From positions 401,997 to 465,996 of the forward strand of contig CAYYDR010000001.1 in NCBI GenBank assembly GCA_964470695.1: 64,000 nt of DNA, written 5' to 3'. The translations under genes were made by a program, and so were the position numbers. Numbering within the stretch: position 1 is the first letter of the stretch; each line of letters begins with the position of its first letter. The notes below the pieces were generated by a model that was given only the letters and a program-made list of their open reading frames with translations, was not told the origin of the DNA and made no database searches. This stretch comes from an uncultured Gammaproteobacteria bacterium. GTDB lineage: Bacteria; Patescibacteriota; Patescibacteriia; Patescibacteriales; UBA12465. Shown piece by piece: positions 49,453 to 64,000 of this stretch.

Positions 49453-49454
49453 CA

Positions 49455-49495: not shown

Positions 49496-49499
49496 CATT

Positions 49500-49709: not shown

Positions 49710-49713
49710 CATC

Positions 49714-49878
49714 TTAGGAGTTTGGGATTCGAACAGGTTGGAAGCGAGCTAGTCGGCGTTCAGCGGAACGACGACGCAGCGAGCGATCGTTAAGCATCCG
49801 GGGGATGCTTAACGCAACCCGCGACAACGAAGGCGCGAACTGGTGAGCGCCTGAGGCGGAAATTCCTATCCTCGAGCC
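49714..49878. ncRNA. Unit 2 of the same element (a diverged copy)
   Basis: 5' box TTAGGAGTTTGGGATTCGAACAGG (49714-49737). Hairpins at 49753-49774, 49788-49814 and 49831-49852. The 3' box AATTCCTATCCTCGAGCC matches the tRNA end at 15 of 18 positions. Confidence 0.45.
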
Positions 49879-50342
49879 AACGTAGATTAAGCGAGGTTAA
49901 AGCATCACTTTTTCTATAATCATCGTCAAGTTTTGGCGGTTCTAACCCGGCTAATTCGGCGTTAAATTTTCCAACATTATTTCTTATTGGTAAAATTCAG
50001 TTATAATAAGAAATGTTAAGCTTTTTATCAATTATCATTCGGTTCGAACCTAAAAAATATATAGATTCTTTATCCGCAATAGCAAAACGACCTTTGGTAA
50101 AGTTTGGTCAAAGATTTAGTCAAAGGTTTTAGCGGTATTTTGGCTAATATTAATTATTAAGATTTTGTTAAAATATAAACAATAATACTTTCCCGATATT
50201 TAATCGGTTGATATTATATTTAGTATTATTTTTAACTATAATTTTTATTTAAAATTAAATAAAATTATATTATTTTATTACAAAAGTAATTTAAATAAGC
50301 TTATATTTATTATATTTTTATTGTTATCGGTATTTTAATTAT

Positions 50343-50371
50343 TTGACAGCGGTTCCGCTATTTGATAAAAT
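50343..50371 (+). promoter_or_regulatory. Promoter of the mini-HTH operon: TTGACA, 17-nt spacer, TAAAAT
   Basis: TTGACA at 50343-50348 and TAAAAT at 50366-50371, 32 nt before the ATG at 50403. The spacer contains GCGGTTCCGC. Confidence 0.55.
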
Positions 50372-50402
50372 ATCACCATAAATTATTAATTGGATAAAAA
50401 AT

Positions 50403-50630
50403 ATGGCGAAACAATTAATCGAAAACGAAGAAATATTAAAAAGGCTTAATATTCTCATTGCATTAAATCTCCAGTCATTTTCTAAAAAAAAGGAAGAATT
50501 AGACACAAGGGGACAGATCGCTTTTCTTTCTGGCTTAAAATTGAAAACCAATGAGATTGCCGAAATCCTTGGAAAAACAAGCAACTATATTAATAAAGAA
50601 TTATTTTATATACGAAAAGATAATAGATAA
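50403..50630 (+). CDS. Mini HTH protein, paralog 1
   Basis: N-terminal Leu-rich helix (ILKRLNILIALNL) and a C-terminal HTH (TNEIAEILGKTSNYINKEL). Confidence 0.55.
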   Translation: MAKQLIENEEILKRLNILIALNLQSFSKKKEELDTRGQIAFLSGLKLKTNEIAEILGKTSNYINKELFYIRKDNR

Positions 50631-50635
50631 ATTAT

Positions 50636-50839
50636 ATGGAGAAACAAGATATCTTATTTTCGAAGCTTGATTTAATAACGTATTTACTAATGCTAAATTT
50701 AAAAAATACTGGTACTATGGATGATAAAATTTTAAAAAATTTAGTAAGCATGTTAGTAAAAAGCGGCTATCCATGGCGAGATATTAGTAGTTTTTTAAAT
50801 GTTAGCCCAAACACAATTAGCAAGTTAACTAAAAAATAA
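50636..50839 (+). CDS. Mini HTH protein, paralog 2
   Basis: LFSKLDLITYLLMLNL, then WRDISSFLNVSPNTISKL. 5-nt gap to paralog 1. Confidence 0.55.
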   Translation: MEKQDILFSKLDLITYLLMLNLKNTGTMDDKILKNLVSMLVKSGYPWRDISSFLNVSPNTISKLTKK

Positions 50840-50844
50840 ATCAT

Positions 50845-51057
50845 ATGGAAAAAGAAAATTTAGATGGTATTTCAAAAAAGTTGTCGGTTTTAGTTTCACT
50901 CTTGATAAGCAGTAACGATAACTATAAGACTACTAAGGAGAGAATTGAATATTTGAAAAAATTTAGCTTATCAAATGTTGAAATTGCTGAAATACTAAAT
51001 ACTTCAAAAAATACTGTAGAAGTAAATTTAACTAATTTAAAAAAGAAAAATAAATAA
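50845..51057 (+). CDS. Mini HTH protein, paralog 3
   Basis: ISKKLSVLVSLLIS, then NVEIAEILNTSKNTVEVNL. 5-nt gap to paralog 2. Confidence 0.55.
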   Translation: MEKENLDGISKKLSVLVSLLISSNDNYKTTKERIEYLKKFSLSNVEIAEILNTSKNTVEVNLTNLKKKNK

Positions 51058-51058
51058 T

Positions 51059-51232
51059 ATGCCTAGAACAAAAAAAGAAGAACAAATAGATAACCAAGAG
51101 GCGATCAAAAGACTGTTAGTTTTAATGTTAATTAATGCTGGCGTCGGCTTGCAAGCCATAGCCGATGCATTAGGAGTGGGAATCGCTACCATAAGCAGAA
51201 TGGTTCCACAAAAAAATCTTAATAAAAAATAA
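51059..51232 (+). CDS. Mini HTH protein, paralog 4 (57 aa, below the ORF-track cutoff)
   Basis: My translation is MPRTKKEEQIDNQEAIKRLLVLMLINAGVGLQAIADALGVGIATISRMVPQKNLNKK. It has the same helix-plus-HTH layout, and its ATG lies 1 nt after the paralog 3 stop. Confidence 0.5.
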   Translation: MPRTKKEEQIDNQEAIKRLLVLMLINAGVGLQAIADALGVGIATISRMVPQKNLNKK

Positions 51233-51242
51233 TTAAAATAAG

Positions 51243-51929
51243 ATGACCGGATTAAATCCAGAACTTTTAGATTATTTATCTAAGAAGCTCAGGCTATCCA
51301 AAAATTCTGTTAGGCAATATGTTTCCAGGAAGCGTATACAGTATAAAGAAAGCACTTTAAATGCAGCGGCTCATCTTTTTGCTGTTGAGAAGGGTGAAAG
51401 CGCAAGAAGATTTTTGGACAAAGAAGACAAGAAATCATTGCCTAGTTATGAGACCGAAGCGCCCACCAGAATTAAAATAAAGCAATTAAAAAATCATAAA
51501 AAAGGAATAATTAATTTTTTTAAATATGAAACCCCTGATCCATTTATTAAAGGCCATATAGACGAGGTTAATAAGGCATATACTCATGGCTGTTATACAT
51601 GTGTATTTATTTTTTGCAGAAAAATAATAGAAAATTTAATAATAAATATTTTGAAAAATGAATTAAAAGACAGAACGCTTTATTGGGATTCGTCAAAATC
51701 CCGACATTTAGATTTTAGTTTAGTCCTCAAGAACTTATATGATAACAGATCAAAATTTAATCCAACAAAATTGAAGGCTATTGAACGGCTATATCAATTA
51801 GCGCAGCCATTCAAAAATGATTGTAATAATAAAACGCATTCCTTATTTCACTTAGTCGAAAAGAAAAAGGAAATTGATGATATTAATGTTAGTCAAATTA
51901 TCAACCTAATAAAAGTTTTAGAAAAATAG
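51243..51929 (+). CDS. Hypothetical protein with a DUF4145-like (HEPN-clan-like) C-terminal domain
   Basis: 'HGCYTCVFIFCRKIIENLIINIL' and 'LKAIERLYQLAQPFKNDCNNKTHS' resemble the DUF4145 pattern. It is the last gene of the HTH operon. Confidence 0.4.
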   Translation: MTGLNPELLDYLSKKLRLSKNSVRQYVSRKRIQYKESTLNAAAHLFAVEKGESARRFLDKEDKKSLPSYETEAPTRIKIKQLKNHKKGIINFFKYETPDPFIKGHIDEVNKAYTHGCYTCVFIFCRKIIENLIINILKNELKDRTLYWDSSKSRHLDFSLVLKNLYDNRSKFNPTKLKAIERLYQLAQPFKNDCNNKTHSLFHLVEKKKEIDDINVSQIINLIKVLEK

Positions 51930-52017
51930 AAATTTTTTTGACTTTTAGCCCTAAAAATCGTAAAATTAGGCCAGAGAATAAGACTTTATCTTTTCTTCAT
52001 ATTCAATTTGCTATAAT

Positions 52018-52878
52018 ATGACTACCTCAAAAAAGGCCGTAAAAACTAAGAAAAAAAGCAAAAAAATGTTAGATCCATTTTTTAAGAATAAGGACTTTAA
52101 ATTATATCAAGCCAATAGCTTGGAATTTTTAGCCACTCTGCTAGAGAACTCGGTTGATATGATATTTGCCGATCCGCCCTATATGCTCTCTAACGGCGGT
52201 TTCTCAGTCCATGCCGGCCGTATGGTTAGTGTTAATAAGGGCGAATGGGATGTTAGTAATGGTTTAAAGAAAGACTTTGAGTTTCAATTAGCCTGGATTA
52301 AGGCTTGTCATAGAGTTTTAAAGCCGGGAGGTACGATTTGGATTTCCGGTACCTATCACTCTATTTATCAATGTGGCTTTGCTCTTCAAGTAAGCAAATT
52401 TCACATCCTAAACGATATTGCTTGGTTTAAGCCAAATGCTTCGCCAAATCTAAGCTGTCGCTTTTTTACGGCCAGTCATGAAACCTTAATCTGGGCAAGA
52501 AAAGAATTAGTTCATCCTAAAACTGGCAAGCCGATAACTACCAAACATAAATTTAATTACGACTTAATGAAGAATGGCAATTGGCCGGAAGACTTTTTAA
52601 AAAAGCCTAACCTACAAATGCGAAGCGTCTGGTCTATGGGAACGCCGAAACCATCTGAAAAGAAATTTGGTAAACATCCAACCCAAAAACCAATAGATCT
52701 ATTAGTTCGTATCGTTATGGCTAGCACGGAAAAAGGAGATGTAGTTATTGACCCCTTTACCGGCTCCTCAACGACTGGTTTAGCTTGTGCTCTTAACGGA
52801 CGCAAGTTTATTGGTATTGATTTAGAGAAGAAATATCTAGACTTATCGGTTAAGAGATATAAGGATTTAATAAAATAA
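52018..52878 (+). CDS. Beta-class DNA amino-methyltransferase (N6-adenine or N4-cytosine)
   Basis: 'IFADPPYML' (motif IV) precedes 'VIDPFTGSSTTG' (motif I). TGCTATAAT abuts the ATG at 52018, so Met17 (52066, MLDPFFKNK) may be the true start. Confidence 0.85.
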   Translation: MTTSKKAVKTKKKSKKMLDPFFKNKDFKLYQANSLEFLATLLENSVDMIFADPPYMLSNGGFSVHAGRMVSVNKGEWDVSNGLKKDFEFQLAWIKACHRVLKPGGTIWISGTYHSIYQCGFALQVSKFHILNDIAWFKPNASPNLSCRFFTASHETLIWARKELVHPKTGKPITTKHKFNYDLMKNGNWPEDFLKKPNLQMRSVWSMGTPKPSEKKFGKHPTQKPIDLLVRIVMASTEKGDVVIDPFTGSSTTGLACALNGRKFIGIDLEKKYLDLSVKRYKDLIK

Positions 52879-52890
52879 TCTATTAAATTT

Positions 52891-53418
52891 ATGATAAAAG
52901 GCGGCTTTGGCGGAGCTAATACAAAAACCGGTCTTCACTTTGAAGAAGAATCGGATTTTTTGACTTTAATTGGCAAACAAAAAGGCTATAAGGTGGAAGA
53001 AAATGTTATTTTTTATAATAGTAAAAAAGTTGCCTTAACTTTTAAGAAACACGACCTTTATAGATATTTAGAAAAGAATGGAATTGATTATAAAAAATTT
53101 ATTTCTAAAAAGATTTTGCCAGACGATGCAATTTTTGTAATTTTTAACAACACCTTTTTTATAATTGAGATAAAATTTCAGCATATTGCCGGATCGACAG
53201 ATGAGAAATTACAAACCTGCGACTTTAAAATAAAGCAATATCGTAAATTATTATCCCAATTAAATGTCGAAGTCCAGTATATTTATGTTTTAAATAGATG
53301 GTTTGAAAAACCTGAATATAAAGACGTTTTAGATTACATCATTTCTATTAATGGTTGTTCTTATTATTTTGAGTATTTACCATTACAAAAATTAGGGTTA
53401 CCGGTGCCTAAAAAATAA
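52891..53418 (+). CDS. Putative Type II restriction endonuclease (PD-(D/E)xK fold)
   Basis: 'LPDDAIFVIFNNTFFIIEIKFQ' fits PD..(D/E)xK. It lies 12 nt downstream of the methyltransferase gene. Confidence 0.55.
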   Translation: MIKGGFGGANTKTGLHFEEESDFLTLIGKQKGYKVEENVIFYNSKKVALTFKKHDLYRYLEKNGIDYKKFISKKILPDDAIFVIFNNTFFIIEIKFQHIAGSTDEKLQTCDFKIKQYRKLLSQLNVEVQYIYVLNRWFEKPEYKDVLDYIISINGCSYYFEYLPLQKLGLPVPKK

Positions 53419-53423
53419 AATAT

Positions 53424-54512
53424 ATGCAGAAAATTCAAGCTTTAAGGTATAACCAAAAAGATAAAGAAATATATATTTTTTCCGCAGATCCAAACTTTAT
53501 AAAAAAATTAGTAAAAATTTCTGATATTTCAAAGAATGACAAAAATTTTCAGAGGCCATATGACATTAAGAGGATAGAAGAAATAAAAACATATTTGTTG
53601 GGCAAGGATAAATTGTATAAAAAGGGCAAAAATATATACGCCAAGGGCTATATACCAAATTCAATAGTTATTAATTTATCTAATAAATATAAAATCACTG
53701 AAGAGAACAAAAATATTTATATTAATTTCCCTAGCGCAGAAGAGGCAAAAAAGTTTGAGAATTCCATTGAAATTATAGACGGCCAACACAGGTTACTAGC
53801 CTTTGACGATGAATGTAAATCAAAGTTGAAGAATTATAAGATGTGCTTCGTTGCCTTTACTGGTTTAACGGGCGATGAGAAAAAGGAGGTTTTTATGGTT
53901 TTAAACGAAAGGCAAAAAACAGTTGATAAAAATATACTATTAAGGCAGAAAAAACTTTTGAATTTACTCTTGGACGATGAAGAAATTAGGTATGATATCA
54001 TTGTAAAACTAAACAACGATAATGATTCGCCACTTAAATCAAGAATAGTATTGGCCGGCGAAAAAATTAAATACGGCCTAAAGGCTAAACAGATAGACGA
54101 AATATTTGAAAAATCTAAAATAATCAGTACTTTAACTGATTCTAATGGACAACTTTCTGATAAAAAATATAAATTATTGTTAAATTATTTTAATGCATGG
54201 AAAAATGAATATTCAAATATTTGGTTCAGCGGGAACAATACATTGACAAAAATTTCTGGTTTTAGGTTTATTGTTTTTTTATTTTCCGGGATATATACAA
54301 TTCTAAACTCCAAAAGAAATTTTCAAATATCAGAATTTGAAAAAATAGTTAATGAGATAAAAAAAATTTATTTTAATGATAATTTTGATATAAAAAAAGC
54401 TGATAAATTTCAGTATTTTCAAGAGAAGAGCGGGACTATTAGACTGGCCGAAAATATTAGTAAGGAGATGTGTGAAAAATATGAAGATAAGGATGAGGAT
54501 ATTTTGGTTTAA
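53424..54512 (+). CDS. DGQHR-domain protein (DndB-like, ParB-fold superfamily)
   Basis: The literal motif 'IEIIDGQHRLLAF'. 362 aa, with a 5-nt gap to the nuclease gene. Confidence 0.7.
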   Translation: MQKIQALRYNQKDKEIYIFSADPNFIKKLVKISDISKNDKNFQRPYDIKRIEEIKTYLLGKDKLYKKGKNIYAKGYIPNSIVINLSNKYKITEENKNIYINFPSAEEAKKFENSIEIIDGQHRLLAFDDECKSKLKNYKMCFVAFTGLTGDEKKEVFMVLNERQKTVDKNILLRQKKLLNLLLDDEEIRYDIIVKLNNDNDSPLKSRIVLAGEKIKYGLKAKQIDEIFEKSKIISTLTDSNGQLSDKKYKLLLNYFNAWKNEYSNIWFSGNNTLTKISGFRFIVFLFSGIYTILNSKRNFQISEFEKIVNEIKKIYFNDNFDIKKADKFQYFQEKSGTIRLAENISKEMCEKYEDKDEDILV

Positions 54513-54518
54513 ATTAAT

Positions 54519-55289
54519 ATGAATAATGAAATTGCATCAAAGTTGGACGCTAATATTGTTAAATTTCAGGTAAAAATTAGAAAGAATCTTCAACTTTATC
54601 TTTTTTCTAAAGATGCCATTGTAAATTTTACAAAGAGCAGTAAAGAACAATTTAAAGATTATGAATTTAAAGATTTTTTAGGGAAATTTAAAAAATTAAA
54701 TTTTAAAAAAGATTCTGAAATTAAGAAAATAAGCTATTCTAAAATATCGGTATACGGAGAAAATTTAGTAAAGAATGAGTTGTCAGATCTAATATTTATA
54801 TTAAATATATCTGATTTTGAGGCATGGTTATCAGAATTTTTTAATCTATTATTTATTTATAACCACGATTTACTCTTGAAATTTATAGATCCAAGTAAAA
54901 ATCCAGTAGAATTATCTATTATTATTAGATCCGACAACCTGGAAGATGTCTGGAAAAAAATTATTAATCGCCATCTTTCAAATAAATTCTATAAAGGGAT
55001 GTCTAATATACTGAAAGACTTACTAAAAACTCTTAATGTAAAACTTGATAAAGATTTAGAAACGATTGTTGGGCAAATAAATGAACACAGTCTCTCTAGA
55101 AATTTAATTATACATAATAAAAGTAAAGTAAATTCGGAATATATACAAAAATCAGGACAATATAGCAGATTTGATAAAGCGGGTGCAAATATTGAGATAT
55201 CTGAAGACTATTTATTTCAACAGGTTGATAATGTTTTATTTTTTATGCAAGAGATTAGAAAGAAATTATCGAAAATTAAATCTTTATGA
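54519..55289 (+). CDS. Helical protein with an Rx4H HEPN-type motif
   Basis: 'INEHSLSRNLIIHNKSKV' has R-N-x3-H, as in many HEPN RNases. The call rests on a single motif only. 6-nt gap to the DGQHR gene. Confidence 0.4.
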   Translation: MNNEIASKLDANIVKFQVKIRKNLQLYLFSKDAIVNFTKSSKEQFKDYEFKDFLGKFKKLNFKKDSEIKKISYSKISVYGENLVKNELSDLIFILNISDFEAWLSEFFNLLFIYNHDLLLKFIDPSKNPVELSIIIRSDNLEDVWKKIINRHLSNKFYKGMSNILKDLLKTLNVKLDKDLETIVGQINEHSLSRNLIIHNKSKVNSEYIQKSGQYSRFDKAGANIEISEDYLFQQVDNVLFFMQEIRKKLSKIKSL

Positions 55290-55345
55290 ATTGGCTTATT
55301 TATTCATTTAATTGTCTAATGAATAATTTAGCACTTCCTCCACGA

Positions 55346-55358
55346 CCCCGAGCAAAAT
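55346..55358 (+). repeat. Right-hand copy of the tRNA-Gln 3'-end repeat (candidate attR)
   Basis: CCCCGAGCAAAAT is identical to 49662-49674 and close to the tRNA end plus flank at 49446-49461. Confidence 0.5.
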
Positions 55359-55396
55359 TTACAAAATAGCACTAAATGTGCTATTTTTGGTATATA
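55358..55396 (+). promoter_or_regulatory. Palindromic promoter/operator module, copy 1
   Basis: TTTACA, 18-nt spacer, TGcTATTTT. Contains AAAATAGCAC-taaat-GTGCTATTTT (55363-55387). A 29-nt block is identical to copy 3. Confidence 0.6.
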
Positions 55397-55407
55397 ACAA
55401 TATAAAT

Positions 55408-56040
55408 ATGACTGTCTGGGACAAAATCTACCAAGATTATAAAAATGGCGGAGAAGAATATGCAACTTTAAAGAAGGGTTTAATCCCAGAGTTTTTGGAA
55501 TTTATTAATAATAATAATTTTACAATCAAAAAAGCTTTAGACGTTGGTTGTGGAAACGGTAAATATTTAGTATTTCTTAAAACTCTAGGATTTGAAGTCG
55601 GCGGTATTGACTCTAGTCCGACTGCCGTTGAGATGACCAAAGAAGCCCTAGGAAATAGTTTCGGTATTATCTGTGCTAATATGTATGATTATGATATACC
55701 CCATTCCCATTATGATTTAGTTATTTCTATTGCCGCCATCCACCATGGCTTAAAAAGCGAGGTTAATAAGGCTATAAAACATATTTACGATGCTCTTTTG
55801 CCGGGTGGACATTTTTTTATTACTTTACCAGATAACGAGGGAAGCTCGCATTGGACTATGATGGCCAGCCATGAAGAGATAGCTCCTGGGACTAGGGTCC
55901 CGCTGTCAGGGCCAGAGAAAGGTTTACCTCATAGCGCATTTACAAAAGATGAAATAGAAGAAATGTTTTCCGATTTCAAGAATATTAATTTACAATTATT
56001 AGCAGATAGGGGGCGGTGGATAGTTATTGGAGAAAAATAG
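55408..56040 (+). CDS. Class I SAM-dependent methyltransferase
   Basis: 'ALDVGCGNGKY' is motif I. I prefer the ATG at 55408 because the upstream GTG extension only reads through the conserved module. Confidence 0.7.
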   Translation: MTVWDKIYQDYKNGGEEYATLKKGLIPEFLEFINNNNFTIKKALDVGCGNGKYLVFLKTLGFEVGGIDSSPTAVEMTKEALGNSFGIICANMYDYDIPHSHYDLVISIAAIHHGLKSEVNKAIKHIYDALLPGGHFFITLPDNEGSSHWTMMASHEEIAPGTRVPLSGPEKGLPHSAFTKDEIEEMFSDFKNINLQLLADRGRWIVIGEK

Positions 56041-56094
56041 TTATTATAATCGCGGTTTGTTTTCATATAAAATTTTTAAGACCTAACCGTTTAT

Positions 56095-56697
56095 ATGATA
56101 GAAAAAATTGTTATTGCCACGCATAATCCTGCAAAAAAAGAGCGCTATGGACGCTTATTATCTTCTTTAGCAGAAACTGTTTTAAATTTAGATGATTTGG
56201 GGATTATTGATAAACCAATAGAATCTGGGTCAACTGCCGAAGAAAATGCGGAAATTAAGGCTAGGTTTTACGCCCAAAAATCAGGATTACCGGTCTTTTC
56301 CGAAGATGAGGCATTGTATGTGGATTTTCTCCCGTTAGATAGACAACCAGGAGTTCATGTGCGCAGAATTGATGGGAAAGATGAGGTTGATGACGAGGCA
56401 TTAATTAATTATTGGGAAGGAACAATAAAAGATGCGCCGTCTGATAAGCGATCCGGAAAATGGCATTTCGCGTATTGTTTATATTTCCCAGGCGGGGAAA
56501 TCAAAATTTTTACTATAGATCGTCCGATATTATTTTTTTCTCCGTCATCAGAAAAAAGAATACCAGGCTGGCCAATGAGTAGCCTGCAGGGGCCATTAAA
56601 ATTTAACAAACCTCATACGGAATTAACTAATGAGGAAAAAAATATAAATAATCAAACTGTTAACGATTTAATATCTAAAGAATTAAAGAATCTGTAA
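56095..56697 (+). CDS. Divergent Ham1/RdgB-like non-canonical NTP pyrophosphatase (tentative)
   Basis: 'KIVIATHNPAKKERY' resembles the ITPase N-terminal motif. The rest is weakly similar. Confidence 0.35.
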   Translation: MIEKIVIATHNPAKKERYGRLLSSLAETVLNLDDLGIIDKPIESGSTAEENAEIKARFYAQKSGLPVFSEDEALYVDFLPLDRQPGVHVRRIDGKDEVDDEALINYWEGTIKDAPSDKRSGKWHFAYCLYFPGGEIKIFTIDRPILFFSPSSEKRIPGWPMSSLQGPLKFNKPHTELTNEEKNINNQTVNDLISKELKNL

Positions 56698-56707
56698 GTT
56701 AATTGGT

Positions 56708-57271
56708 ATGTTAGGTATGGTAAATTTTAAGAATAACGATAAAATTTTATTTATTCCAGGATGGCTAGACACCGGCGGGAGAAATGGTTATCAGAATAGC
56801 CTGGATGTTTGGGATAAAAATATTGATATTAATAAAGATTTTAAGGTTGATTACGTCATAGCCCATAGCGTTGGATCCTTGGTGGCTTTGTATAACTGGA
56901 AATTATATAAAAATTTTAAAATTATTTTAGTAAATCCAGTAATTTTAAGAAGAGGTATATTTAGAAGATGGTATAAATTTAGCATTTCAGAGGGGCTACC
57001 AGATTCCTTCAAAAAATCAATAAAGATACTTCACATTATTACGTCTTTGATTAAAATTGTTAGGTTATTTAAAGTTCCAGTCCTTGATATTATTAATACT
57101 GTTCCTAAAGAAAATCTTGCTATTATTTATGGCGAGAATGATATATATCTTTTTGACAGAGAGGCTATACAGAAATTTAGAGAAAAAGGCTTTAGGATTG
57201 AAGAAGTAAAAGGATCCGGCCATAATTATGAAGAAAATATAGAGAAAGCTCTTTTGAATATCATTCCATAA
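56708..57271 (+). CDS. Small alpha/beta serine hydrolase (YdeN/RBBP9-like)
   Basis: 'ILFIPGW', a nucleophile elbow 'AHSVGS', a C-terminal 'GSGHN', and a size of ~190 aa. Confidence 0.55.
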   Translation: MLGMVNFKNNDKILFIPGWLDTGGRNGYQNSLDVWDKNIDINKDFKVDYVIAHSVGSLVALYNWKLYKNFKIILVNPVILRRGIFRRWYKFSISEGLPDSFKKSIKILHIITSLIKIVRLFKVPVLDIINTVPKENLAIIYGENDIYLFDREAIQKFREKGFRIEEVKGSGHNYEENIEKALLNIIP

Positions 57272-57318
57272 AATACTTAGCTCAAAATTATTCCAATTGC
57301 GTCTTATCTAACAATAAA

Positions 57319-57360
57319 TAGACAAAATACCACTTTTTGTGCTATTTTTGTTGTATATAA
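57319..57360 (+). promoter_or_regulatory. Palindromic promoter/operator module, copy 2
   Basis: TAGACA, 18-nt spacer, TGcTATTTT. Contains AAAATACCAC-ttttt-GTGCTATTTT (57324-57348). It is out of frame with the downstream ORF. Confidence 0.6.
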
Positions 57361-57375
57361 AGAATAAGTATTTAT

Positions 57376-58392
57376 ATGAAAACTACTATAATACCTTTCA
57401 CGTATACTAGAGAATTCTCTTTAATATTGTGTGAAGCTTGGGGCGGAGCATATAATAATTTTTTGGGCGTTCAACTAAAAACCCATCCCCGTTATATTTC
57501 ATTTATTAATAGGGGCATGGTATCTACGTACCGTAATCATGAGCTTGATAAAGAAGTTAATCTTCTGTTTTTGAGCCATATTAAGGAAAACCCGTCTTAT
57601 TTCAAAGATTTTTTTGATGAATATATTGATAGGTTTAATGGATTAAAAAATTTTTGGGAAAAGGAATATTTAAGCAGAGAAGAACTCATCTATTTTATTA
57701 ATCAGTTGATCTTATTCTGGCCAGCAATATATTCCAGTACCTATATACCTAACGATAATAATTTTTCCGAATTTGATTGCCAATTAAATTTAAAATTACG
57801 CGAAAAAATTGATATTGCCGCGCATGAGGCTAGTAATATAATAGTTAAGACTCTCCAAGCGATTTATCCTAATTTAGGGGAGCTGGTATATTCTATTAGC
57901 ATTGATGATTTCAAAAATGATCAAGTTGATGCAGAGAAAGTAGAAAAAATGTACAATAGTACTTTGATTTTGGTAGAAGACACTTTGGTTAGCAAGACTG
58001 ATCTTGAAGATTTAAAGAAAAAATATAACTTTGAATTAGAAAATGTGGACGCTTTATCAAGTCAGATGCACATAAAAGGACAAATTGCACATGTTGGCAA
58101 TGTGCGTGGAGTAGCTCGATTGATTTTTAAAAGAAATGAAATGGATAAGATTAAAAAGGGGGAGATATTAGTTACTGGTATGACGACTCCCGAGTTCCTG
58201 CCGGCCATGAGAAAATCGGCCGCTTTTATTACGGACGAAGGCGGTATTACTTGCCATGCGGCCATAATAGCCAGAGAGCTTAAAAAACCTTGCATTATTG
58301 GCACCAAGAATGCCACAAAAGTTATAAAAGACGGTGACTTAGTAGAAGTAGATGCAAATAATGGGATAGTTAAAATTCTAAAAAGAGTATAA
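57376..58392 (+). CDS. Protein with a C-terminal PEP-utilising-enzyme mobile (swivelling phosphohistidine) domain
   Basis: 'ILVTGMTTPEFLPAMRKSAAFITDEGGITCHAAIIARELKKPCIIG'. The N-terminal ~230 aa are unrecognised. Confidence 0.6.
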   Translation: MKTTIIPFTYTREFSLILCEAWGGAYNNFLGVQLKTHPRYISFINRGMVSTYRNHELDKEVNLLFLSHIKENPSYFKDFFDEYIDRFNGLKNFWEKEYLSREELIYFINQLILFWPAIYSSTYIPNDNNFSEFDCQLNLKLREKIDIAAHEASNIIVKTLQAIYPNLGELVYSISIDDFKNDQVDAEKVEKMYNSTLILVEDTLVSKTDLEDLKKKYNFELENVDALSSQMHIKGQIAHVGNVRGVARLIFKRNEMDKIKKGEILVTGMTTPEFLPAMRKSAAFITDEGGITCHAAIIARELKKPCIIGTKNATKVIKDGDLVEVDANNGIVKILKRV

Positions 58393-58564
58393 AGTTTTAT
58401 ATAATTAAAATATAAATTTATGAATAAAGTTACACGTTTTAAATTCCCCTGGGACAAAAAGAATAAGTAGACAGAGAAATTATAATGTGTTAGAGTAATT
58501 TATTATTTAAACAGTTATTTAAAAATTAAAGCAACTATTTCTAAACAAAAAGAGGTGAATCTCT

Positions 58565-59353
58565 ATGTGGTATTTAATGTATAAGCTTTTTAGACCAATC
58601 CAGCCTATTTCGGGCGGCCTAGCGGCTTGGATAGTTTCCAGGGCTTGCGGGGCAGATTTCCACTCATCTTTAGCCGCCGCAATGACTATGGCATTCGGTA
58701 TTATAGGGGCTAGTTTTTATCACTACGGCGGAGCTAATTGGATGTACGCTCGGAAATCCGAGCGGCTAAAGTTTAAAGACCCTCAGGTAATTATGCTCAT
58801 CGGTCTCGTTATATTTAGTCTTTCTATTGCTATCGCGGTTCAGTGGTTACCGAAACAGTGCGTCTATATCGCTCTGTTTAACACTATTTCCGTGGCAGCC
58901 TATTCGGCCAAGCTTTCGTCGCATTGGATGACCAAAAATCTGACCATGAGTTTAGTCTGCGCTACGCCGGTGGCCATGGGTTGGCAAGCGGGGAATTTTA
59001 CTCATCCGATAGTGCCATGGGCCATTGCTATAGCTATATTAGCCCATCTTTCTAGGGAGATGATTAAGGATGTCAAGGATATTATAGCCAACAATGGCCG
59101 TAGAGTAACCTTGCCTATGGTACTAGGAACCGGCACAGTCCTTCAAATTGCTGGCAGCCTATTATTTATCGTCGGAGTCATCATGATTTTTCTGTTATGG
59201 TTTACCGGGAGTGTATTCCAACAGGCCATGGTGGTTATGTCCATATCCCTATTTTTTCTAACGGCCTGGCAGCTTACTATTCATAAGCAGGCGATGCGGA
59301 GTGAAACAGTAATTACTATGGGGATGTTCTGCATTTTACTGGCTTTAGTTTAG
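58565..59353 (+). CDS. UbiA-superfamily-like polytopic membrane protein (atypical)
   Basis: About 8 TM helices. 'REMIKDVKDIIANNGRRVTLPMVLG' resembles the second Asp-rich motif region of UbiA prenyltransferases. I do not see the first Asp-rich motif. Confidence 0.4.
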   Translation: MWYLMYKLFRPIQPISGGLAAWIVSRACGADFHSSLAAAMTMAFGIIGASFYHYGGANWMYARKSERLKFKDPQVIMLIGLVIFSLSIAIAVQWLPKQCVYIALFNTISVAAYSAKLSSHWMTKNLTMSLVCATPVAMGWQAGNFTHPIVPWAIAIAILAHLSREMIKDVKDIIANNGRRVTLPMVLGTGTVLQIAGSLLFIVGVIMIFLLWFTGSVFQQAMVVMSISLFFLTAWQLTIHKQAMRSETVITMGMFCILLALV

Positions 59354-59374
59354 ATTTATTTTAGCTTGGATTCT

Positions 59375-59406
59375 ATGGCTGTCTATTTAAGGCAGCCATT
59401 TTTTTA
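59375..59406 (+). terminator. Intrinsic terminator
   Basis: Stem ATGGCTGTC/GGCAGCCAT followed by T8. Confidence 0.75.
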
Positions 59407-59487
59407 TTCATAATTAATTAAATTTAAATAGAGGGACTGTTTAATATGGTTAAATATGATATAATTTTCATATAATATATAAAAAAT

Positions 59488-60183
59488 ATGAAAAAAACGC
59501 CCGAACAAGCTTTAATGGAAATATTTAACGAATATAAAGACAGAGGACTTATTTCTTTGTATTTATATGGTTCAATTTTAACGCAAGACTATAATGAGGG
59601 AGAGAGCGATATAGATTCAATTGGATTTGCGTCTGAGGATATGCCGTTGTCTCTTGAAAATGAAATAAAAAATAAATTATGTGAAAAATCGGATTTTGAT
59701 AAATTTGGTTTTAGGCTTTTGTATAAATCCGAATTAGATTCCGGGATTATTAAAGGTAATTTAGCTAGTTTTATTCATCCTCAGTTATTGCTTCTGGATT
59801 TCCCTTACTGGAAACATGTAGCGGGGCAAGTTTTTTCCAGATCAGATTTTTCATTAGTTGATGTTGATGCGGCTGGGGCTGTAAAAATTAGATTAAATCA
59901 TTTGGTAAGAATTGAGGATGGCTCATTTAAGACTGCGCCGGGCGATAAGCATATTTTATTTTTGAAAGTATTAGCTCGGATTATGTTCCATTTACAAAAA
60001 GAGCGGGGTTATAGTGAGCCTTTTTCATATAGTTCGGTATTTCTCCATTCCAACGAAGAAGAAAAACTAGTTGCCGAGGCCATACTTAACTGTAAAAAAA
60101 ATAAATGGAGTGAATTGGCGTTTAAAGAGAATGAAGCTATATATAAAAATTTTATTAATGTTTTAAGAAGTCGTTTTATTTGA
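59488..60183 (+). CDS. Nucleotidyltransferase (AadA/ANT-like minimal NTase fold)
   Basis: 'LYLYGSILTQDYNEGESDIDSIGF' is a GS..DxD motif. Confidence 0.5.
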   Translation: MKKTPEQALMEIFNEYKDRGLISLYLYGSILTQDYNEGESDIDSIGFASEDMPLSLENEIKNKLCEKSDFDKFGFRLLYKSELDSGIIKGNLASFIHPQLLLLDFPYWKHVAGQVFSRSDFSLVDVDAAGAVKIRLNHLVRIEDGSFKTAPGDKHILFLKVLARIMFHLQKERGYSEPFSYSSVFLHSNEEEKLVAEAILNCKKNKWSELAFKENEAIYKNFINVLRSRFI

Positions 60184-60269
60184 GTGACATGGCGGTCTAT
60201 GGTTTTTCTATAAGAAATAGAAATATTTAGGATAAATTCGTCCCAACTATATCTAAACCTTGGAGTAAA

Positions 60270-60310
60270 TAGACAAAATAGCACTAAATGTGCTATTTTT
60301 GTTGTATAAA
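60270..60310 (+). promoter_or_regulatory. Palindromic promoter/operator module, copy 3
   Basis: TAGACA, 18-nt spacer, TGcTATTTT. Contains AAAATAGCAC-taaat-GTGCTATTTT (60275-60299). The ATG at 60314 follows closely. Confidence 0.6.
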
Positions 60311-60313
60311 TAT

Positions 60314-61426
60314 ATGGACAAAATACATAAACTATACATATTTTTGGGGTTAATGGTTTTTTTATTCCCCCTATCGCTAAAAGCCGAACAAGATGCTAGG
60401 CAATCAGAAATATTTGAGGCTCGAGTAGTAGAAGTACTTCGGGTTGAAGAAAAGAATAGGGAAAATGGCTCTAAGTTTGAGCAGCAAAATTTAAAACTCC
60501 AGGGATTAGAGGGGGATTGGCTAAATAAAGAAGTCGTGTATAATGGCATCTCTGAAATTGAGGTCGCTAATGCCAATTATTATCAGGTTGGCGATAAAGT
60601 TTTAGTTGATAGACAGACCGATGAGCTCGGCCAAGACACTTTTTATGTGACGGATTTTGTTAGAAGCGGTTATCTTTATTTTCTTTTTGCAATTTTTATT
60701 ATTATTGTTTTGGCCGTCGGTAGAGCTAAGGGATTTAAAGCTCTGCTTAGTCTATTATTGAGTTTCGTGGTTATAATTGAATTTATTTTACCGCAAATAT
60801 TGAACGGGGGAGATCCTTTTTTAGTCAGTCTGATTGGCGGTCTAATAATTTTGGGAATAATAATCTATCTCACTGAGGGTTTTAAGCTTAAGTCTCATAT
60901 AGCCGTATTATCAGTTTTAGTCTCGTTATCAATAACTCTGTTATTGTCAATAATTTTTACGACCCTGGCTAAATTATCAGGACTAGCGCAAGAAGAAGCC
61001 GCTTTTTTAATTGGGATAGGCGGCGTGGATATTAATTTTAGAGGTCTGCTATTAGCTGGTTTCATTATCGGAGCAATCGGCGTGCTGGATGATATTATTG
61101 TCGGTCAAGTAGAGGCCGTTGAACAAATTAGGCTGGCTAATCCCGCTCTTTCAGTAAAAAAAGTATTTACCATGGCTTATGAAGTCGGCAATACCCATAT
61201 TGGCGCAATTGTTAACACTCTTTTTCTTACTTATGCTGGAGCGGCTTTACCGCTGCTTTTATTGTTTATTCTGAATCAAGATTCGGGCGTAACATTCGGC
61301 CGACTGATAAATACCGAGATAGTCAGCACCGAAATAGTCAGGGCTTTGGTCGGCAGTATCGGAGTGATATTATCCATGCCAATCGCTACTTGGTTAGCGG
61401 CCGTTAAATTGAAGGTTAAAAATTAG
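60314..61426 (+). CDS. YibE/F-like polytopic membrane protein
   Basis: Signal/TM start at MDKIHKLYIFLGLMVFLF, an extracytoplasmic N-domain, then ~7 TM helices with a YibE/F-like pattern. I prefer the start at 60314. Confidence 0.5.
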   Translation: MDKIHKLYIFLGLMVFLFPLSLKAEQDARQSEIFEARVVEVLRVEEKNRENGSKFEQQNLKLQGLEGDWLNKEVVYNGISEIEVANANYYQVGDKVLVDRQTDELGQDTFYVTDFVRSGYLYFLFAIFIIIVLAVGRAKGFKALLSLLLSFVVIIEFILPQILNGGDPFLVSLIGGLIILGIIIYLTEGFKLKSHIAVLSVLVSLSITLLLSIIFTTLAKLSGLAQEEAAFLIGIGGVDINFRGLLLAGFIIGAIGVLDDIIVGQVEAVEQIRLANPALSVKKVFTMAYEVGNTHIGAIVNTLFLTYAGAALPLLLLFILNQDSGVTFGRLINTEIVSTEIVRALVGSIGVILSMPIATWLAAVKLKVKN

Positions 61427-61478
61427 TTAGCTTCGGTTGTTTAGATCTTAACATAATTAATATATAAAAAATAAAATT

Positions 61479-61652
61479 ATGAAAAAATATTATAGAATAA
61501 TATTATATTCTATTTTTGCAATATTATTCGGCATATTTATGTTTATATATGGCGGATATGACGATAGCCCTGGCGCGCAGCTTTTGGGGTTAATATTATT
61601 TATTATTGGTGTTGTTAGCTTAATAAAAAATAAAAGAAACAATTGTCTTTAG
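61479..61652 (+). CDS. Small two-TM membrane protein (57 aa, below the ORF-track cutoff)
   Basis: My translation is MKKYYRIILYSIFAILFGIFMFIYGGYDDSPGAQLLGLILFIIGVVSLIKNKRNNCL. Confidence 0.35.
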   Translation: MKKYYRIILYSIFAILFGIFMFIYGGYDDSPGAQLLGLILFIIGVVSLIKNKRNNCL

Positions 61653-61789
61653 TTTAGGCCGCATCTAAAGTTAATTAAAAGGATTTGACCGCGCCTTGAG
61701 TTTATACTTAGAAGCGGTCTTTTTTATTATTTTTAATAATAAGTCCGCGCGAGGTATTTTATATTTTCTTAATATTAAGAAACTTTATA

Positions 61790-61830
61790 TTGGCAAAATA
61801 GTTAAAAATATGCTATTTTTGTTATATTAC
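61790..61830 (+). promoter_or_regulatory. Palindromic promoter/operator module, copy 4 (degenerate)
   Basis: TTGGCA, 18-nt spacer, TGcTATTTT. The outer half-sites AAAATAG..CTATTTT are retained. 23 of 29 positions match copies 1 and 3. Confidence 0.5.
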
Positions 61831-61854
61831 CTCATAATTAAATTGTTTAATCAG

Positions 61855-63393
61855 GTGAAGAAAAAAATACAAATATTATTATTGCTAATCCGTTTGTCTT
61901 TTTTGGGTTTGTTTTTGTATTCGGGTGTTAGATTCTATATTTTTTTATCAAATAACCATGGTCCTCTAAATTTAGCTATCTCCTTTTTTCTGCTTTTAGC
62001 TGAAGCGCATTCAATCCTTCATTCATTAGGATTTATAATTAGTGTCGTTCGTCTGAGAGTGCCGGGGGTAAATTATCATCGTCACGCTGAGTTAGATATA
62101 AATAATTTGCCATCGGTAACAATTTTAGTCCCGGCTAGGAATGAGCCGGTTGATATTCTAGAGTTAACTTTTATTTCTTTAGTTTCTTTGGATTATAAAA
62201 ATAAGGAAATATTCTTTCTAGATGGTTCAGATGAAAAATACTTTAAGCAAAACCAGGCTTTAGCTGAAAAATATAATATTGGTTATTTTCACCCTACAGA
62301 GAGACCCCGGAGTAAGGCGGAAATAATTAATCGGTATTTACCTAATCTTACTAGTAAATATTTGGCGGTCTTTGACGCTGATCAAAACCCTTTGCCAGAA
62401 TTTTTATTAGAAACTGTTGGGCTATTGGAATATTCTAAAAGAATAGGCTTTGTTCAGACGCCTCAATTATATTCTAATCTTCATGTTAGCCCAATCGCGC
62501 GCGGCGCAGCTTTGCAACAGTCAATTTTTTATGAAAATGTTTGTGAATCAAAGGGTAAATCTGGGGCCATGTTTTGCTGTGGCACCAATTTTTTAATGCA
62601 AACTGAAGTTTTGAGGCAAGTAGGTGGGTTTGACGAGAGTTCGGTTACGGAAGATTTTGCCACTTCCGTTAAAATACACTCCCTGGGTTATCGTTCAATC
62701 TATTATAACCATGTTAGAGTTTTTGGCATGGCTCCGGAAACTCTGCCAGCCTATCTTAAACAGCAATTTCGTTGGTCGGCTGGATCAGTTGGGGTTCTGC
62801 GGCGCTTGTTTTTAGATTCTTTGAGCGGAAAATTGCATTTAAATTTTGCGCAAAAATGGGAGTATTTTTTATCCGCTACTTATTATTTTGTTGGCTGGTC
62901 ATTTTTTATCTTAATGCTGTGCCCAATTCTTTATTTATTGTTTGGCGTCCCTTCTTATTTTGCTAGCCCTTATTTATATCTAGGGACTTTTGTCCCTTAT
63001 TATACGCTAATGTTAGTAACCTTCTACGCGACTATGACTAAAAGACACTATAAGATAAGGGATATTTTTATGGGCATTATTATGGGATCCTTGAGTTATC
63101 CTGTTTTAATAAAATCTACCACGGCAGCCATCTTCGGCCGAAAAGTTAGTTTTGAAATAACCGACAAGGGAAGAACTGGCAGATTAAGTTTTTGGAGATT
63201 ATGGCCTTGGACTATTATGATAACTATAAATATATTGGCGATTGTAAATGGACTTTTTCATATTTCGGAAGATTATTATGCTATCGGGATAAATATTTTT
63301 TGGTGCGCTTATCATGCTATTTTGCTTTCTTATATATTTAAACTTAACGAAAGCCCCAAGATAGAAAAAGACAATATTTTAAATTACGCTTAA
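61855..63393 (+). CDS. Processive family-2 beta-glycan synthase (cellulose-synthase-like)
   Basis: 'VFDADQNP', 'VTEDFATS' and 'LKQQFRWSAGS' (QxxRW), flanked by TM helices. The start is uncertain: GTG 61855 or TTG 61843 if the module is a promoter, versus the ORF-track TTG 61696 or ATG 61810. Confidence 0.75.
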   Translation: MKKKIQILLLLIRLSFLGLFLYSGVRFYIFLSNNHGPLNLAISFFLLLAEAHSILHSLGFIISVVRLRVPGVNYHRHAELDINNLPSVTILVPARNEPVDILELTFISLVSLDYKNKEIFFLDGSDEKYFKQNQALAEKYNIGYFHPTERPRSKAEIINRYLPNLTSKYLAVFDADQNPLPEFLLETVGLLEYSKRIGFVQTPQLYSNLHVSPIARGAALQQSIFYENVCESKGKSGAMFCCGTNFLMQTEVLRQVGGFDESSVTEDFATSVKIHSLGYRSIYYNHVRVFGMAPETLPAYLKQQFRWSAGSVGVLRRLFLDSLSGKLHLNFAQKWEYFLSATYYFVGWSFFILMLCPILYLLFGVPSYFASPYLYLGTFVPYYTLMLVTFYATMTKRHYKIRDIFMGIIMGSLSYPVLIKSTTAAIFGRKVSFEITDKGRTGRLSFWRLWPWTIMITINILAIVNGLFHISEDYYAIGINIFWCAYHAILLSYIFKLNESPKIEKDNILNYA

Positions 63394-63394
63394 T

Positions 63395-63643
63395 ATGAAA
63401 AAGAAAAATCAAAAAATAATCTCAGATTTTATTTTGCAAAGCATTAATGAGGCTAGAATTAAAGAAGAATTAGCAATTCCTCTCTATTCCGGTCATATTA
63501 AGCAGACTTTGTTCTGGTCTGGATTGCCAAAGGTTAGTCGCGATAAAATTATGTCTGGTTTAACAACTTTAAAGACGGATTCAATAAAACATTGTAAAAT
63601 ATTGAAAAGGGTGGCTGATAATTATATAAAAAATAACAAATAA
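63395..63643 (+). CDS. Small hypothetical protein, translationally coupled to the glycan synthase gene
   Basis: The ATG lies 1 nt after the upstream stop. A helical 'DSIKHCKILKRV' segment is an ExxH/DxxxH-like, ferritin-like hint only. Confidence 0.35.
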   Translation: MKKKNQKIISDFILQSINEARIKEELAIPLYSGHIKQTLFWSGLPKVSRDKIMSGLTTLKTDSIKHCKILKRVADNYIKNNK

Positions 63644-63644
63644 T

Positions 63645-63833
63645 ATGTTTAATAAAAGGGATTACCGATCTTATTTTAAGCAGCTCTATCAAGTTGAGCT
63701 AATGATGAAAAAAGAGGGCCGGGCATTATTAAAATTAGTTCCGGATAAAGATTCTAAAGAGCTTCTTAACATTTTAATTGCTGATGAAATTAAGCACGCT
63801 AAAATAGTTAAAGAAATGATGAATTTGATTTAA
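63645..63833 (+). CDS. Small hypothetical protein
   Basis: The ATG lies 1 nt after the upstream stop. '[14 protein letters not shown]' parallels the motif in the preceding ORF. Confidence 0.35.
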
Positions 63834-63843
63834 TTATAATTTT

Positions 63844-64000
63844 ATGAAAAAAATTAGAACGGCAGTTATTCCGGTCGGCGGTTGGGGAACACGCTTTTTG
63901 CCCATTACCAAGAGTATTCCTAAGGAGATGCTCCCCTTGGGTAATAAACCAATAATCCTACATGTTGTAGAGGAGGTTGTCGCCTCAGGAATTAAAAATA
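63844..64000 (+). CDS. galU: UTP--glucose-1-phosphate uridylyltransferase GalU; N-terminal part, runs off the window
   Basis: My translation is [44 protein letters not shown].., the canonical GalU N-terminus. Confidence 0.85.

Follow-up and report, generated by a model that had tools for sequence, protein, structure and literature searches.

A promoter-in-hairpin module that may head accessory-gene cassettes at a tRNA-Gln locus in Patescibacteria

The 64-kb stretch of contig CAYYDR010000001.1 analysed here (the window) carries four co-oriented copies of a ~40-bp module on the + strand. On balance these modules are probably the heads of accessory-gene cassettes in an accretion array downstream of a tRNA-Gln gene, with scars of a large serine recombinase (LSR) between the cassettes. 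Each module would merge two signals, a sigma-70-type promoter (-35 T(T/A)GACA, 18-nt spacer, extended -10 TGcTATTTT) and a hairpin with a T-run, the 10-bp/5-nt hairpin being made of the promoter's own spacer and -10, with TG plus the -10 as its 3' arm and their complement as its 5' arm. Each module would end transcripts that come from the tRNA or from upstream, and start those of the cargo. While a cassette adjoins the live tRNA-Gln, its hairpin would act as the terminator and 3' flank of the tRNA, and the cargo would be transcribed from its promoter; further insertions would then shift the cassette unit distally along with its scar. This scar, here called the R-box, would be an attR-type site of the LSR in which the P half-site of the element is joined, at about GAG of ...CCGAGCA, to the old tRNA flank. 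We infer transcription starts, termination, the crossover position and mobilisation in trans from sequence.

The window would then run from tRNA-Gln through recent insertions (GC-rich units and a defence island) to R-box 1, module 1 and cassette 1, followed by a decayed scar with module 2 and cassette 2, R-box 3 with module 3 and cassette 3, and lastly module 4 and cassette 4.

Sequence and geometry of the four modules

The consensus T(T/A)GACA-AAATAGCAC-N5-GTGCTATTTTTG is found at 55358, 57319, 60270 and 61790 and nowhere else in the window. Copies 1 and 3 share the 29-mer ACAAAATAGCACTAAATGTGCTATTTTTG, which has exactly two window occurrences (55361 and 60273) with none expected by chance, and copies 2 and 4 differ from it at 4/29 and 6/29 positions respectively. 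The 16-nt degenerate core GCTATTTTTGKTRTAT gives four exact + strand matches and one extra match on the - strand at 7708 with 2 mismatches (0.56 expected). An earlier note on this DNA had described the four copies, the shared 29-mer and a common promoter layout, all of which were confirmed, and had proposed a scan with a position weight matrix (PWM); a 44-column PWM of the module run over the window returned the same four copies and no fifth. The layout common to all four is a -35-like hexamer (TTTACA, TAGACA, TAGACA and TTGGCA in copies 1-4), exactly 18 nt, and then TGcTATTTT. The note's further statement, that a perfect inverted repeat surrounds the core promoter, holds solely for copies 1 and 3; the repeat AAAATAGCAC-N5-GTGCTATTTT has one mismatch in copy 2 and three in copy 4.

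Module 1 (55358..55397, +) has its -35 TTTACA at 55358-63, arms at 55363-72 and 55378-87, TG at 55379-80, -10 TATTTT at 55382-87 and a GTATATAA box at 55390-97, and is followed on the + strand by the methyltransferase ATG at 55408. In module 2 (57319..57358, +), TAGACA lies at 57319-24, the arms at 57324-33 and 57339-48, the -10 at 57343-48 and the ATG at 57376; the stem has one C-C mismatch and is a hybrid of the CCAC and GTGC types. Module 3 (60270..60309, +) has TAGACA at 60270-75, perfect arms at 60275-84 and 60290-99 and the -10 at 60294-99, upstream of the YibE/F ATG at 60314 (+). Module 4 (61790..61829, +) is the most diverged, with TTGGCA at 61790-95, three mismatches in the left arm and TGCTATTTTTG intact, and precedes a GT2 gene on the same strand starting at 61843 (TTG) or 61855 (GTG). 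The window open reading frames (ORFs) start 12-33 nt past the module end. The 'MLFL..' extensions called at 55378, 60290 and 61810 are as the note had described them, and these N-terminal extensions are annotation artefacts.

Copies 1 and 3 fold into hairpins of -11.8 and -13.1 kcal/mol (z about -4.6), those of copies 2 and 4 being weaker (-6.4 and -6.8 kcal/mol). Stem damage in copies 2 and 4 falls in the left arm and loop only, the one exception being a single G-to-A change at the inner end of the copy 4 right arm. The 3' arm TGCTATTTTTG is invariant in 4/4 window copies and the 5' arm is the decaying one. The hairpins are followed by a TTTTTG T-run.

Distribution of the module in Patescibacteria

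Genomes, one per species, were scanned with the pattern CAAAATA-N8-T-N-TGCTATTTTTG, which returned near-identical modules, an unrelated Chryseobacterium coding-sequence family and scattered chance matches. The module-bearing metagenome-assembled genomes (MAGs) are labelled Candidatus Falkowbacteria, Patescibacteria group, Saccharibacteria and Sungiibacteriota, and three are labelled Gammaproteobacteria, as deposited. A metagenome scan with ACAAAATA-N13-TATTTTTGKTDTAT, which left the stem core and loop free, produced 99 matches with 75 unique sequences, of which 54 carry the hexamer T[TAG][GT]ACA; these are the ones with a paired stem. The module is found nearly base for base at about 100 Patescibacteria loci. 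The parts of it unbiased by the search patterns are the stem core and loop, the first three hexamer bases, all upstream sequence and a second module family described below. The LysS proteins of the window and of a Candidatus Falkowbacteria MAG are 86% identical and, by its sequence, the window organism belongs to this module-bearing Patescibacteria group. The metagenome run SRR13723396 contains a contig that matches 55.4-59.6 kb of the window identically.

A co-oriented ORF follows the module in 79 of 86 instances, with a start within 52 nt (from 6 nt) in 74 of them, and the ORFs behind modules fall into about 65 unrelated families. Any one genome has just 1-5 copies, which lie together in a single array. 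Genes homologous to the PEP and nucleotidyltransferase genes of the window lie behind modules in other loci, and homologues of several window cassette genes are found elsewhere either behind modules or with different neighbours; these changed neighbours indicate that cassette units do reshuffle. The promoter-like layout reported in the earlier note recurs with unchanged spacing at about 75 independent loci, in every case shortly before an ORF of the same orientation. The second reading offered in the note, a portable promoter cassette that spreads between gene cassettes, agrees with the data, and non-homologous genes follow the module in several genomes.

A short palindrome present in many genomes could also be a selfish small repeat, resembling a miniature inverted-repeat transposable element or a repetitive extragenic palindrome, with no role in expression or recombination. 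We find this scarcely credible, as the modules keep a strict single orientation, they are confined to arrays on the strand of the R-boxes, and the only tRNA found beside them is tRNA-Gln; moreover they have a fixed position before ORFs, no target duplications and few copies per genome. The exact palindrome had no match in IMG/VR, the R-box-plus-module pattern gave chance matches only, and a close-relative scan of IMG/VR with the LSR found no relative; a phage origin of the module was set aside on these results.

Evidence for a promoter

T[TA][GT]ACA is present in 17 of the 19 instances in which the search pattern left these bases free. Among 146 unique R-box instances, 77 have a -35-like hexamer within 9 nt downstream; in 75 of these TAnnnT follows at a distance of 17-19 nt, and in 71 a TG occupies the extended -10 position. 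Such features are seen in only 16 of the 69 R-box instances that lack the hexamer (Fisher p = 8e-23, partly biased by the way in which loci were found). Eleven instances have a 17-nt spacing with TG, and the 17-nt instances that were inspected have a different stem, TTGACA-AAAAGTATACC..TGGTATACTTTTT, with the -10 TATACT. In this second module family (TTGACA, 17 nt, TGG-TATACT) spacer and -10 again form a hairpin, AAAAGTATACC/GGTATACTTTT, and there is no downstream TATAA box, which points to the 3'-arm hexamer being the -10. A canonical sigma-70-type promoter lies nearby at 50343, and a relative encodes a sigma-70 with regions 2-4. Some other junctions have a plain terminator with a distinct TTGACA-17-TATAAT promoter behind it; from its sequence, the module looks like a compacted 'terminator, then promoter'.

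Two other assignments were tried and rejected. If the downstream TATAA box were the -10, the start of copy 3 would fall beyond its ATG, and the box is absent in GC-richer lineages and in the second module family. As for a Bacteroidetes-type -7 motif, TATTTTTG does fit TAnnTTTG, but there is no -33 TTTG, and the DNA is that of a Patescibacterium.

Some further features of the leader region were observed. A leader motif, TTAACAAT or GTAATATTAACAA, is found 10-25 nt past many modules of the TTGACA class and of the second family, before the start codon (L073, L075, L093, L129, L134, L144 and other loci), and weakly at 55394-55401 in the window. Shine-Dalgarno sites were counted at 5/50 ORFs of the window genome, and with so few genome-wide their absence behind modules is nothing special. 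Some window genes have TGnTATAAT six bases ahead of the ATG (for instance the gene at 220; region 195-222), and a -10 so near the ATG suggests leaderless mRNAs.

Covariation in the stem

Covariation was assessed in a set of 54 unbiased unique modules, in which 96.3% of cells are paired. Double-sided changes number 22, as against 6.1 +/- 1.9 in shuffles (0/500 shuffles reach 22), and all four free stem pairs covary. Stem positions 12/24 and 15/21 are exchanged as compensatory pairs, the main swaps being G12-C24 to C12-G24 (10 cases) and C15-G21 to T15-A21 (7 cases), and stems of the G-C type, the C-G type and the second family occur together on single contigs (L094, L110 and L111). Such mixed variants on one contig, with complementarity kept, make a dimer that reads the bases unlikely and speak for selection on a hairpin.

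This bears directly on the proposal of the earlier note that the palindrome is the operator of a dimeric repressor occluding RNA polymerase, and that the four units form a local regulon. The dyad symmetry over the -35 edge and the -10, the sequence conservation of both arms in many genomes and the presence of three small helix-turn-helix (HTH) ORFs in the adjacent island would all suit an operator. Against it, besides the compensatory swaps, the cargo is functionally unrelated, no recurrent regulator was found among the ORF clusters of 80 loci and the HTH ORFs of the window island have no conserved counterparts elsewhere; the 5' arm accepts wobble-compatible changes, which a symmetric reader would not, and the few copies of a genome all lie in one array. 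We therefore consider a repressor operator quite unlikely and do not retain the local regulon.

The two arms of the stem are constrained differently. T22 and G23, the TG of the extended -10, are 94-98% conserved, against 78% for the partner A14, which is often G instead with pairing to U retained. Changes confined to one arm number about 20 in the 5' arm vs about 7 in the 3' arm, an asymmetry that fits a 3' arm under promoter and pairing constraint and a 5' arm under pairing constraint only. One-sided changes read on the + strand are of G.U type in 16 cases vs A.C type in 7, a count that favours + strand RNA over a symmetric DNA site but is suggestive only.

The 45 nt past R-boxes fold on average at -11.7 kcal/mol for modules and -13.0 for plain terminators, compared to -5.1 kcal/mol for controls (p about 1e-20). 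Perfect stems were seen in 7/7 inspected modules adjoining a live tRNA-Gln, vs about half of all unique modules; the module stands directly after tRNA-Gln in L057, L074, L080, L094, L140 and L149. It could be argued that the hairpin is no more than an intrinsic terminator that came along with the 3' flank of tRNA-Gln, the cargo being expressed from elsewhere. A hairpin plus T-run directly behind tRNA or R-boxes is what such a terminator would look like, about half of R-boxes carry plain terminators at the same place, and the scan tool calls copies 1 and 3 terminator-like. We judge this distinctly improbable, however: a terminator has no need of a TTGACA-type hexamer, which nevertheless accompanies 3' arms with TGnTAnnnT at 17-18 nt and no others, displaced copies preserve the 3' arm better than the 5' arm, and no other promoter fits in the 12-33 nt before the window ORFs. 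The earlier note had missed both the terminator character of the hairpin and its tRNA-Gln/serine-integrase context.

R-boxes as probable attR-type scars

Almost every module is preceded, 2-4 nt upstream, by an R-box that resembles the last 27-35 nt of tRNA-Gln (consensus taaaaCCGTTCCAAnTaTATCCCannCTCCGAGCA). A PWM of the box has 148 matches on the module strand vs 0 on the opposite strand (about 80 loci), and in the 60 module loci scanned for tRNA genes only tRNA-Gln was found, sometimes directly abutting the module. A hairpin stands behind every R-box, either a module or, in about half of cases, a plain terminator. R-boxes recur every 0.4-1.5 kb, behind a gene and usually that gene's terminator. 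In the window, the att-like repeat CCCCGAGCA occurs at 49446, 49662 and 55346, the last abutting copy 1; this abutment, which the earlier note had pointed out, is real and generalises to the whole module family.

The distance from the end of TTCNAA to the end of ...GAGCA is 16 nt in 22 true tRNA boxes and 21 nt in 95 R-boxes, so that between TTCNAA and TCCC an R-box is exactly 5 bases longer than a real tRNA end. In serine integrases, the distal zinc-ribbon-domain (ZD) motif of attP half-sites lies 5 bp further out than that of attB half-sites (PMC3783163). As the 5-bp shift of TTCNAA is that published geometry, R-boxes are best read as attR sites, in which the P arm of an element would be joined to the old tRNA flank. 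The junctions read GTTCCAA-N5-TCCC..GAGCA followed by the promoter-like module, and a three-way comparison of the live tRNA flank, attL and attR in locus L263 places the crossover at about GAG of CCGAGCA. No mirrored integrase motif was found in the right half-sites.

With its start 2-4 nt past the inferred crossover region, the module might instead be mainly a DNA recombination signal, that is the right half-site (B'/P') of the LSR, an accessory site or a hairpin-type site, its promoter likeness being secondary. The P' flank of the LSR element, TTGAAGAAAAATCGC, resembles TTGACAAAATAGCAC in the 5' part of the module, the homology of cassettes between loci breaks between R-box and hairpin loop, and hybrid stems such as that of window copy 2 look like recombinants. 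We nevertheless think this unlikely. Serine-integrase att sites are short, the outermost ZD motif ending 24 bp from the centre and minimal attB sites being about 10 bp shorter than attP (PMC3783163), whereas the most conserved part of the module, TGCTATTTTTG, lies about 25-37 bp out. There is also no 5-bp shift on the module side, the loop varies freely, and the coupled -35, spacing, TG, -10 and fixed ORF distance are left unexplained. A role in recombination could add to, and need not exclude, that of a cassette head with promoter and hairpin.

The R-box was also considered as a foldable tRNA-like RNA, and this was rejected as no conserved 5' partner strand is visible by eye. A separate observation was made in locus L128, where an AT-rich ~170-nt repeat (9131-9306, 11365-11529 and 12784-12950) lies between a plain terminator and the next module; it contains a D-arm-like part, GTTCCAAAGCGGTTAGAAC, and a T-arm-like part, GGTTCGAATCC, and ARAGORN makes no tRNA call in it.

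Large serine recombinases on tRNA-Gln in relatives

Full-length relatives of the LSR, about 510 aa long, are abundant in Patescibacteria. The LSR gene is antisense to, and overlaps, an intact tRNA-Gln in L255-L259, and is located about 100 nt from an intact tRNA-Gln in L263-L265. In L255 and L256 it lies beside Pyr_excise and LysS, as in the flank of the window tRNA-Gln, and the longer L255 adds GreA and Wzy. The elements of L257 and L263 consist of the LSR, a Rep gene and a few small ORFs, and have a typical R-box at the far end, 4-4.5 kb away. Close relatives of the LSR target tRNA-Gln, and more distant ones are found on tRNA-Ser.

The LSR ORFs run antisense through about 50-60 nt of the target tRNA (L255 507-2056; L257 8001-9550; L260 7001-8570), and as they cross into it the C-terminal tail would be encoded across attL. 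The Rep gene carried by LSR elements is of the REP_ORF2-G2P type. At L263 7802-8031 a live tRNA-Gln is followed ~100 nt on by a defective tRNA-Gln-like copy that carries the LSR element and has its 3' 45 nt identical to the live gene; from such sequences, tandem tRNA-like copies seem common at the tRNA-Gln locus.

Several observations count against the cassette-head explanation as set out above. No serine recombinase or other integrase was found in the window, which implies that the cassettes would need an LSR in trans or may be fossils, and the truncated LSR in the L076 array is the only one seen among about 80 module loci. The R-box PWM gives no significant box ahead of copies 2 and 4, the R-box 2 candidate scoring -11.3. 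The placement of the crossover rests on a single case, L263, and the right half-sites (B'/P') have no convincing symmetry. As a terminator the stem is weak, being AT-rich with 3 G-C pairs; cassettes usually have their own terminator ahead of the R-box, which makes the hairpin unneeded for stopping cassette transcripts, and the hairpin is fairly intact even in displaced copies. AT-rich lineages also conserve a second -10-like box, TTATATAA, 4-9 nt past the module, which might be the true -10. Finally, the loci were found by patterns that fix parts of the module, and some of the conservation statistics are therefore circular.

A possible gene-capture platform

More tentatively, and as something we hold possible without leaning towards it, the arrays may represent an integron-like gene-capture platform of Patescibacteria that uses an LSR instead of IntI and docks at tRNA-Gln. 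The cassettes, which lack an integrase and mostly hold a single gene, would bear a P half-site and, at the opposite end, a standard promoter embedded in a terminator; an LSR acting in trans would capture, stack and reshuffle them. If true, the conserved docking site and standard cassette heads would explain how accessory and defence genes are gained and expressed without disturbing core operons, and tiny genomes would have a dedicated, self-insulated slot for such genes. The module, by its predicted function, would be a compact natural promoter-plus-insulator conserved in several Patescibacteria lineages, and together with the LSR and the attB/attP pair it would offer candidate genetic parts for a group that is hard to manipulate. 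R-boxes and modules may be used to delimit cassettes and islands, and the 5-bp motif shift may serve as a sequence-only test that separates attP-type scars from real tRNA ends.

In SCCmec-type elements, CcrAB/CcrC serine recombinases build composite islands at the rlmH 3' end. The arrays described here would be alike in that a single conserved housekeeping locus is the target of one LSR family, insertions made in series leave scars in the form of direct repeats, many units have no recombinase and the cargo is of accessory or defence type; they differ in the tRNA-Gln target, in having mostly single-gene units of 0.4-3 kb with a promoter-hairpin head, and in their Patescibacteria hosts. Like integron arrays, they are ordered sets of co-oriented small cassettes with unrelated cargo, structured junction repeats and one docking site. 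Unlike integrons, they have no IntI-type tyrosine recombinase (none was found in the window or any locus with an HxLRHxxA-box regex, a crude test) and no R''/R' core (RYYYAAC/GTTRRRY); the cassettes would carry their own promoter rather than rely on Pc, and the junction consists of a tRNA-like att scar plus the promoter-hairpin.

Compared with the att geometry of serine integrases (Rutherford et al. 2013, PMC3783163), the distal motif TTCNAA is likewise exactly 5 bp further out in the element-type site, but this applies to left half-sites only, the right ones having no recognisable mirrored motif. Mobile promoters, in which one promoter sequence lies upstream of non-homologous genes within or between genomes, have been described (PMC3488235, PMC3575422). 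In contrast to these putative mobile promoters (PMPs), the promoter here is in an att-linked cassette head, fused to a hairpin and tied to one chromosomal locus. With intrinsic terminators, including the bidirectional A-tract/hairpin/T-tract kind, the module shares a stem-loop and T-run directly after an RNA gene and covarying arms; it differs by its AT-rich stem (3 G-C), by a 3' arm that doubles as extended -10 and by conservation of the stem sequence itself.

The palindrome between and over the -35 and -10 is also reminiscent of LexA/Fur, MerR and CIRCE/HrcA operators, which differ in having a cognate regulator and a coherent regulon. With respect to MerR-type promoters, the spacer is 18 nt (not 19-20), the palindrome is off-centre and covers the -10, and there is no MerR gene. 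The CIRCE consensus, TTAGCACTC-N9-GAGTGCTAA, has a spacing unlike that of the module and belongs to chaperone genes. The known operator consensuses of CIRCE, NrdR boxes, CRP/FNR, LexA and MerR were compared with the palindrome and rejected as unfit in spacing or gene content.

Site-specific elements that stack at the 3' end of a tRNA or essential gene with recombinase-less passengers are known as a general kind. A search of the literature on the module sequence, Patescibacteria promoter motifs and tRNA-Gln islands returned nothing relevant, and we found no description of the conserved promoter-in-hairpin head, of integron-like arrays of mostly single-gene cassettes at tRNA-Gln across Patescibacteria, or of the clean attP/attB 5-bp signature in cassette scars. 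Hundreds of islands have been reported in Patescibacteria, in a paper that makes no mention of tRNAs or integrases (PMC12455944).

Layout of the tRNA-Gln locus in the window

The array is anchored by tRNA-Gln(CTG) (49382..49453, +; ARAGORN and Rfam), which has the spacing of an attB-type site, its TTCGAA motif ending 16 nt ahead of ...GAGCA. Its left flank, GreA-LysS-Pyr_excise, is conserved in relatives at several loci. A plain intrinsic-terminator hairpin lies directly 3' of the tRNA (49455..49495, +), and the 51 nt at 49450-49500 fold at -23.5 kcal/mol (z -7.65). Window boxes above the null of the R-box PWM (99th percentile 5.6) are at 49420, 49636, 49844, 55320 and 60233.

Two tandem GC-rich structured units of ~170 nt each follow (49497-49670 and 49711-49878; region 49497..49878, +), whose boxes score 25.2 and 17.3 on this PWM. 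Each unit closes with the last 18 nt of tRNA-Gln, and its 5' end, TTGGGGATTCGAAC, resembles the tRNA 5' region and pairs with the 3' AAUCCC; compensatory changes are seen at 13/30 pairs across nine homologues in other loci. Neither the GC-rich units nor the module matched a family in Rfam. In L076 the truncated serine recombinase abuts a GC-rich unit, not the tRNA.

A low-GC island (49879..55319, +; 27-32% GC vs about 39%) comes next. The three small HTH ORFs lie here along with genes for an N6/N4 DNA methylase, a DndB-like protein and two unknown proteins; there is also a weak PD-(D/E)XK-like match below the Pfam cut-off, and the island possesses its own near-consensus promoter, TTGACA-17-TAAAAT, at 50343-50371. 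No integrase was found in it by Pfam and PHROGs. From its genes the island looks like defence-type cargo.

R-box 1 (55320..55354, +), a putative attR-type scar, consists of the P-arm and then TCCACGACCCCGAGCA with the attP-type 21-nt spacing; it scores 20.1 and is of the same class as the boxes of L128, L142 and L159. Behind module 1, the cassette 1 cargo (55408..57271, +) comprises a SAM-methyltransferase, a Ham1-like protein and a 187-aa protein. In L161 a homologue of the methyltransferase is directly followed by an R-box and module. As to the gene functions given in the earlier note, Pfam supports the SAM-methyltransferase, Ham1, PEP-utilizers mobile domain, UbiA, YibE/F and GT2/cellulose-synthase-like assignments; the nucleotidyltransferase is weak (matches below the Pfam cut-off only), and the 'serine hydrolase', which is the 187-aa protein, has no Pfam match.

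A possible decayed R-box 2 (57283..57317, +), in which only TTCCAATTG and the 5-nt spacer are recognisable, was compared by eye with the L122 box ahead of a homologous PEP-utilizers cassette. The cassette 2 region (57376..60183, +) encodes a PEP-utilizers-domain protein, a UbiA-like protein and the nucleotidyltransferase-like gene, which has its own TGATATAAT promoter; a terminator lies at 59375-59399. R-box 3 (60233..60267, +), which reads GTCCCAA-CTATA-TCTAAACCTTGGAGTA and is probably a decayed attR-type scar, scores 13.4. The cassette 3 cargo (60314..61726, +), a YibE/F-like membrane protein followed by a 57-aa ORF, closes with a terminator of its own at 61687-61726, around which the 56 nt at 61680-61735 fold at -15.2 kcal/mol. 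Ahead of module 4 there is only 'gtccgcgcgaggta' at 61743-56, with a faint likeness to an R-box. The cassette 4 cargo (61843..64000, +) comprises a GT2/cellulose-synthase-like protein, two small ORFs and a GalU-like gene, the N-terminus of which, recognised by eye in the translation, begins at 63844 and runs past the window edge.

Within cassette 2, a decayed extra cassette head is present at 58393-58470. It retains the module leader TTATATAATTAAAATATAAATTT, and behind intact modules in L151 and L161 there is a 130-aa protein to whose beginning its truncated ORF, MNKVTRFKFPWDKKNK*, is homologous; its hairpin part is replaced by the 3' end of the PEP-utilizers gene.

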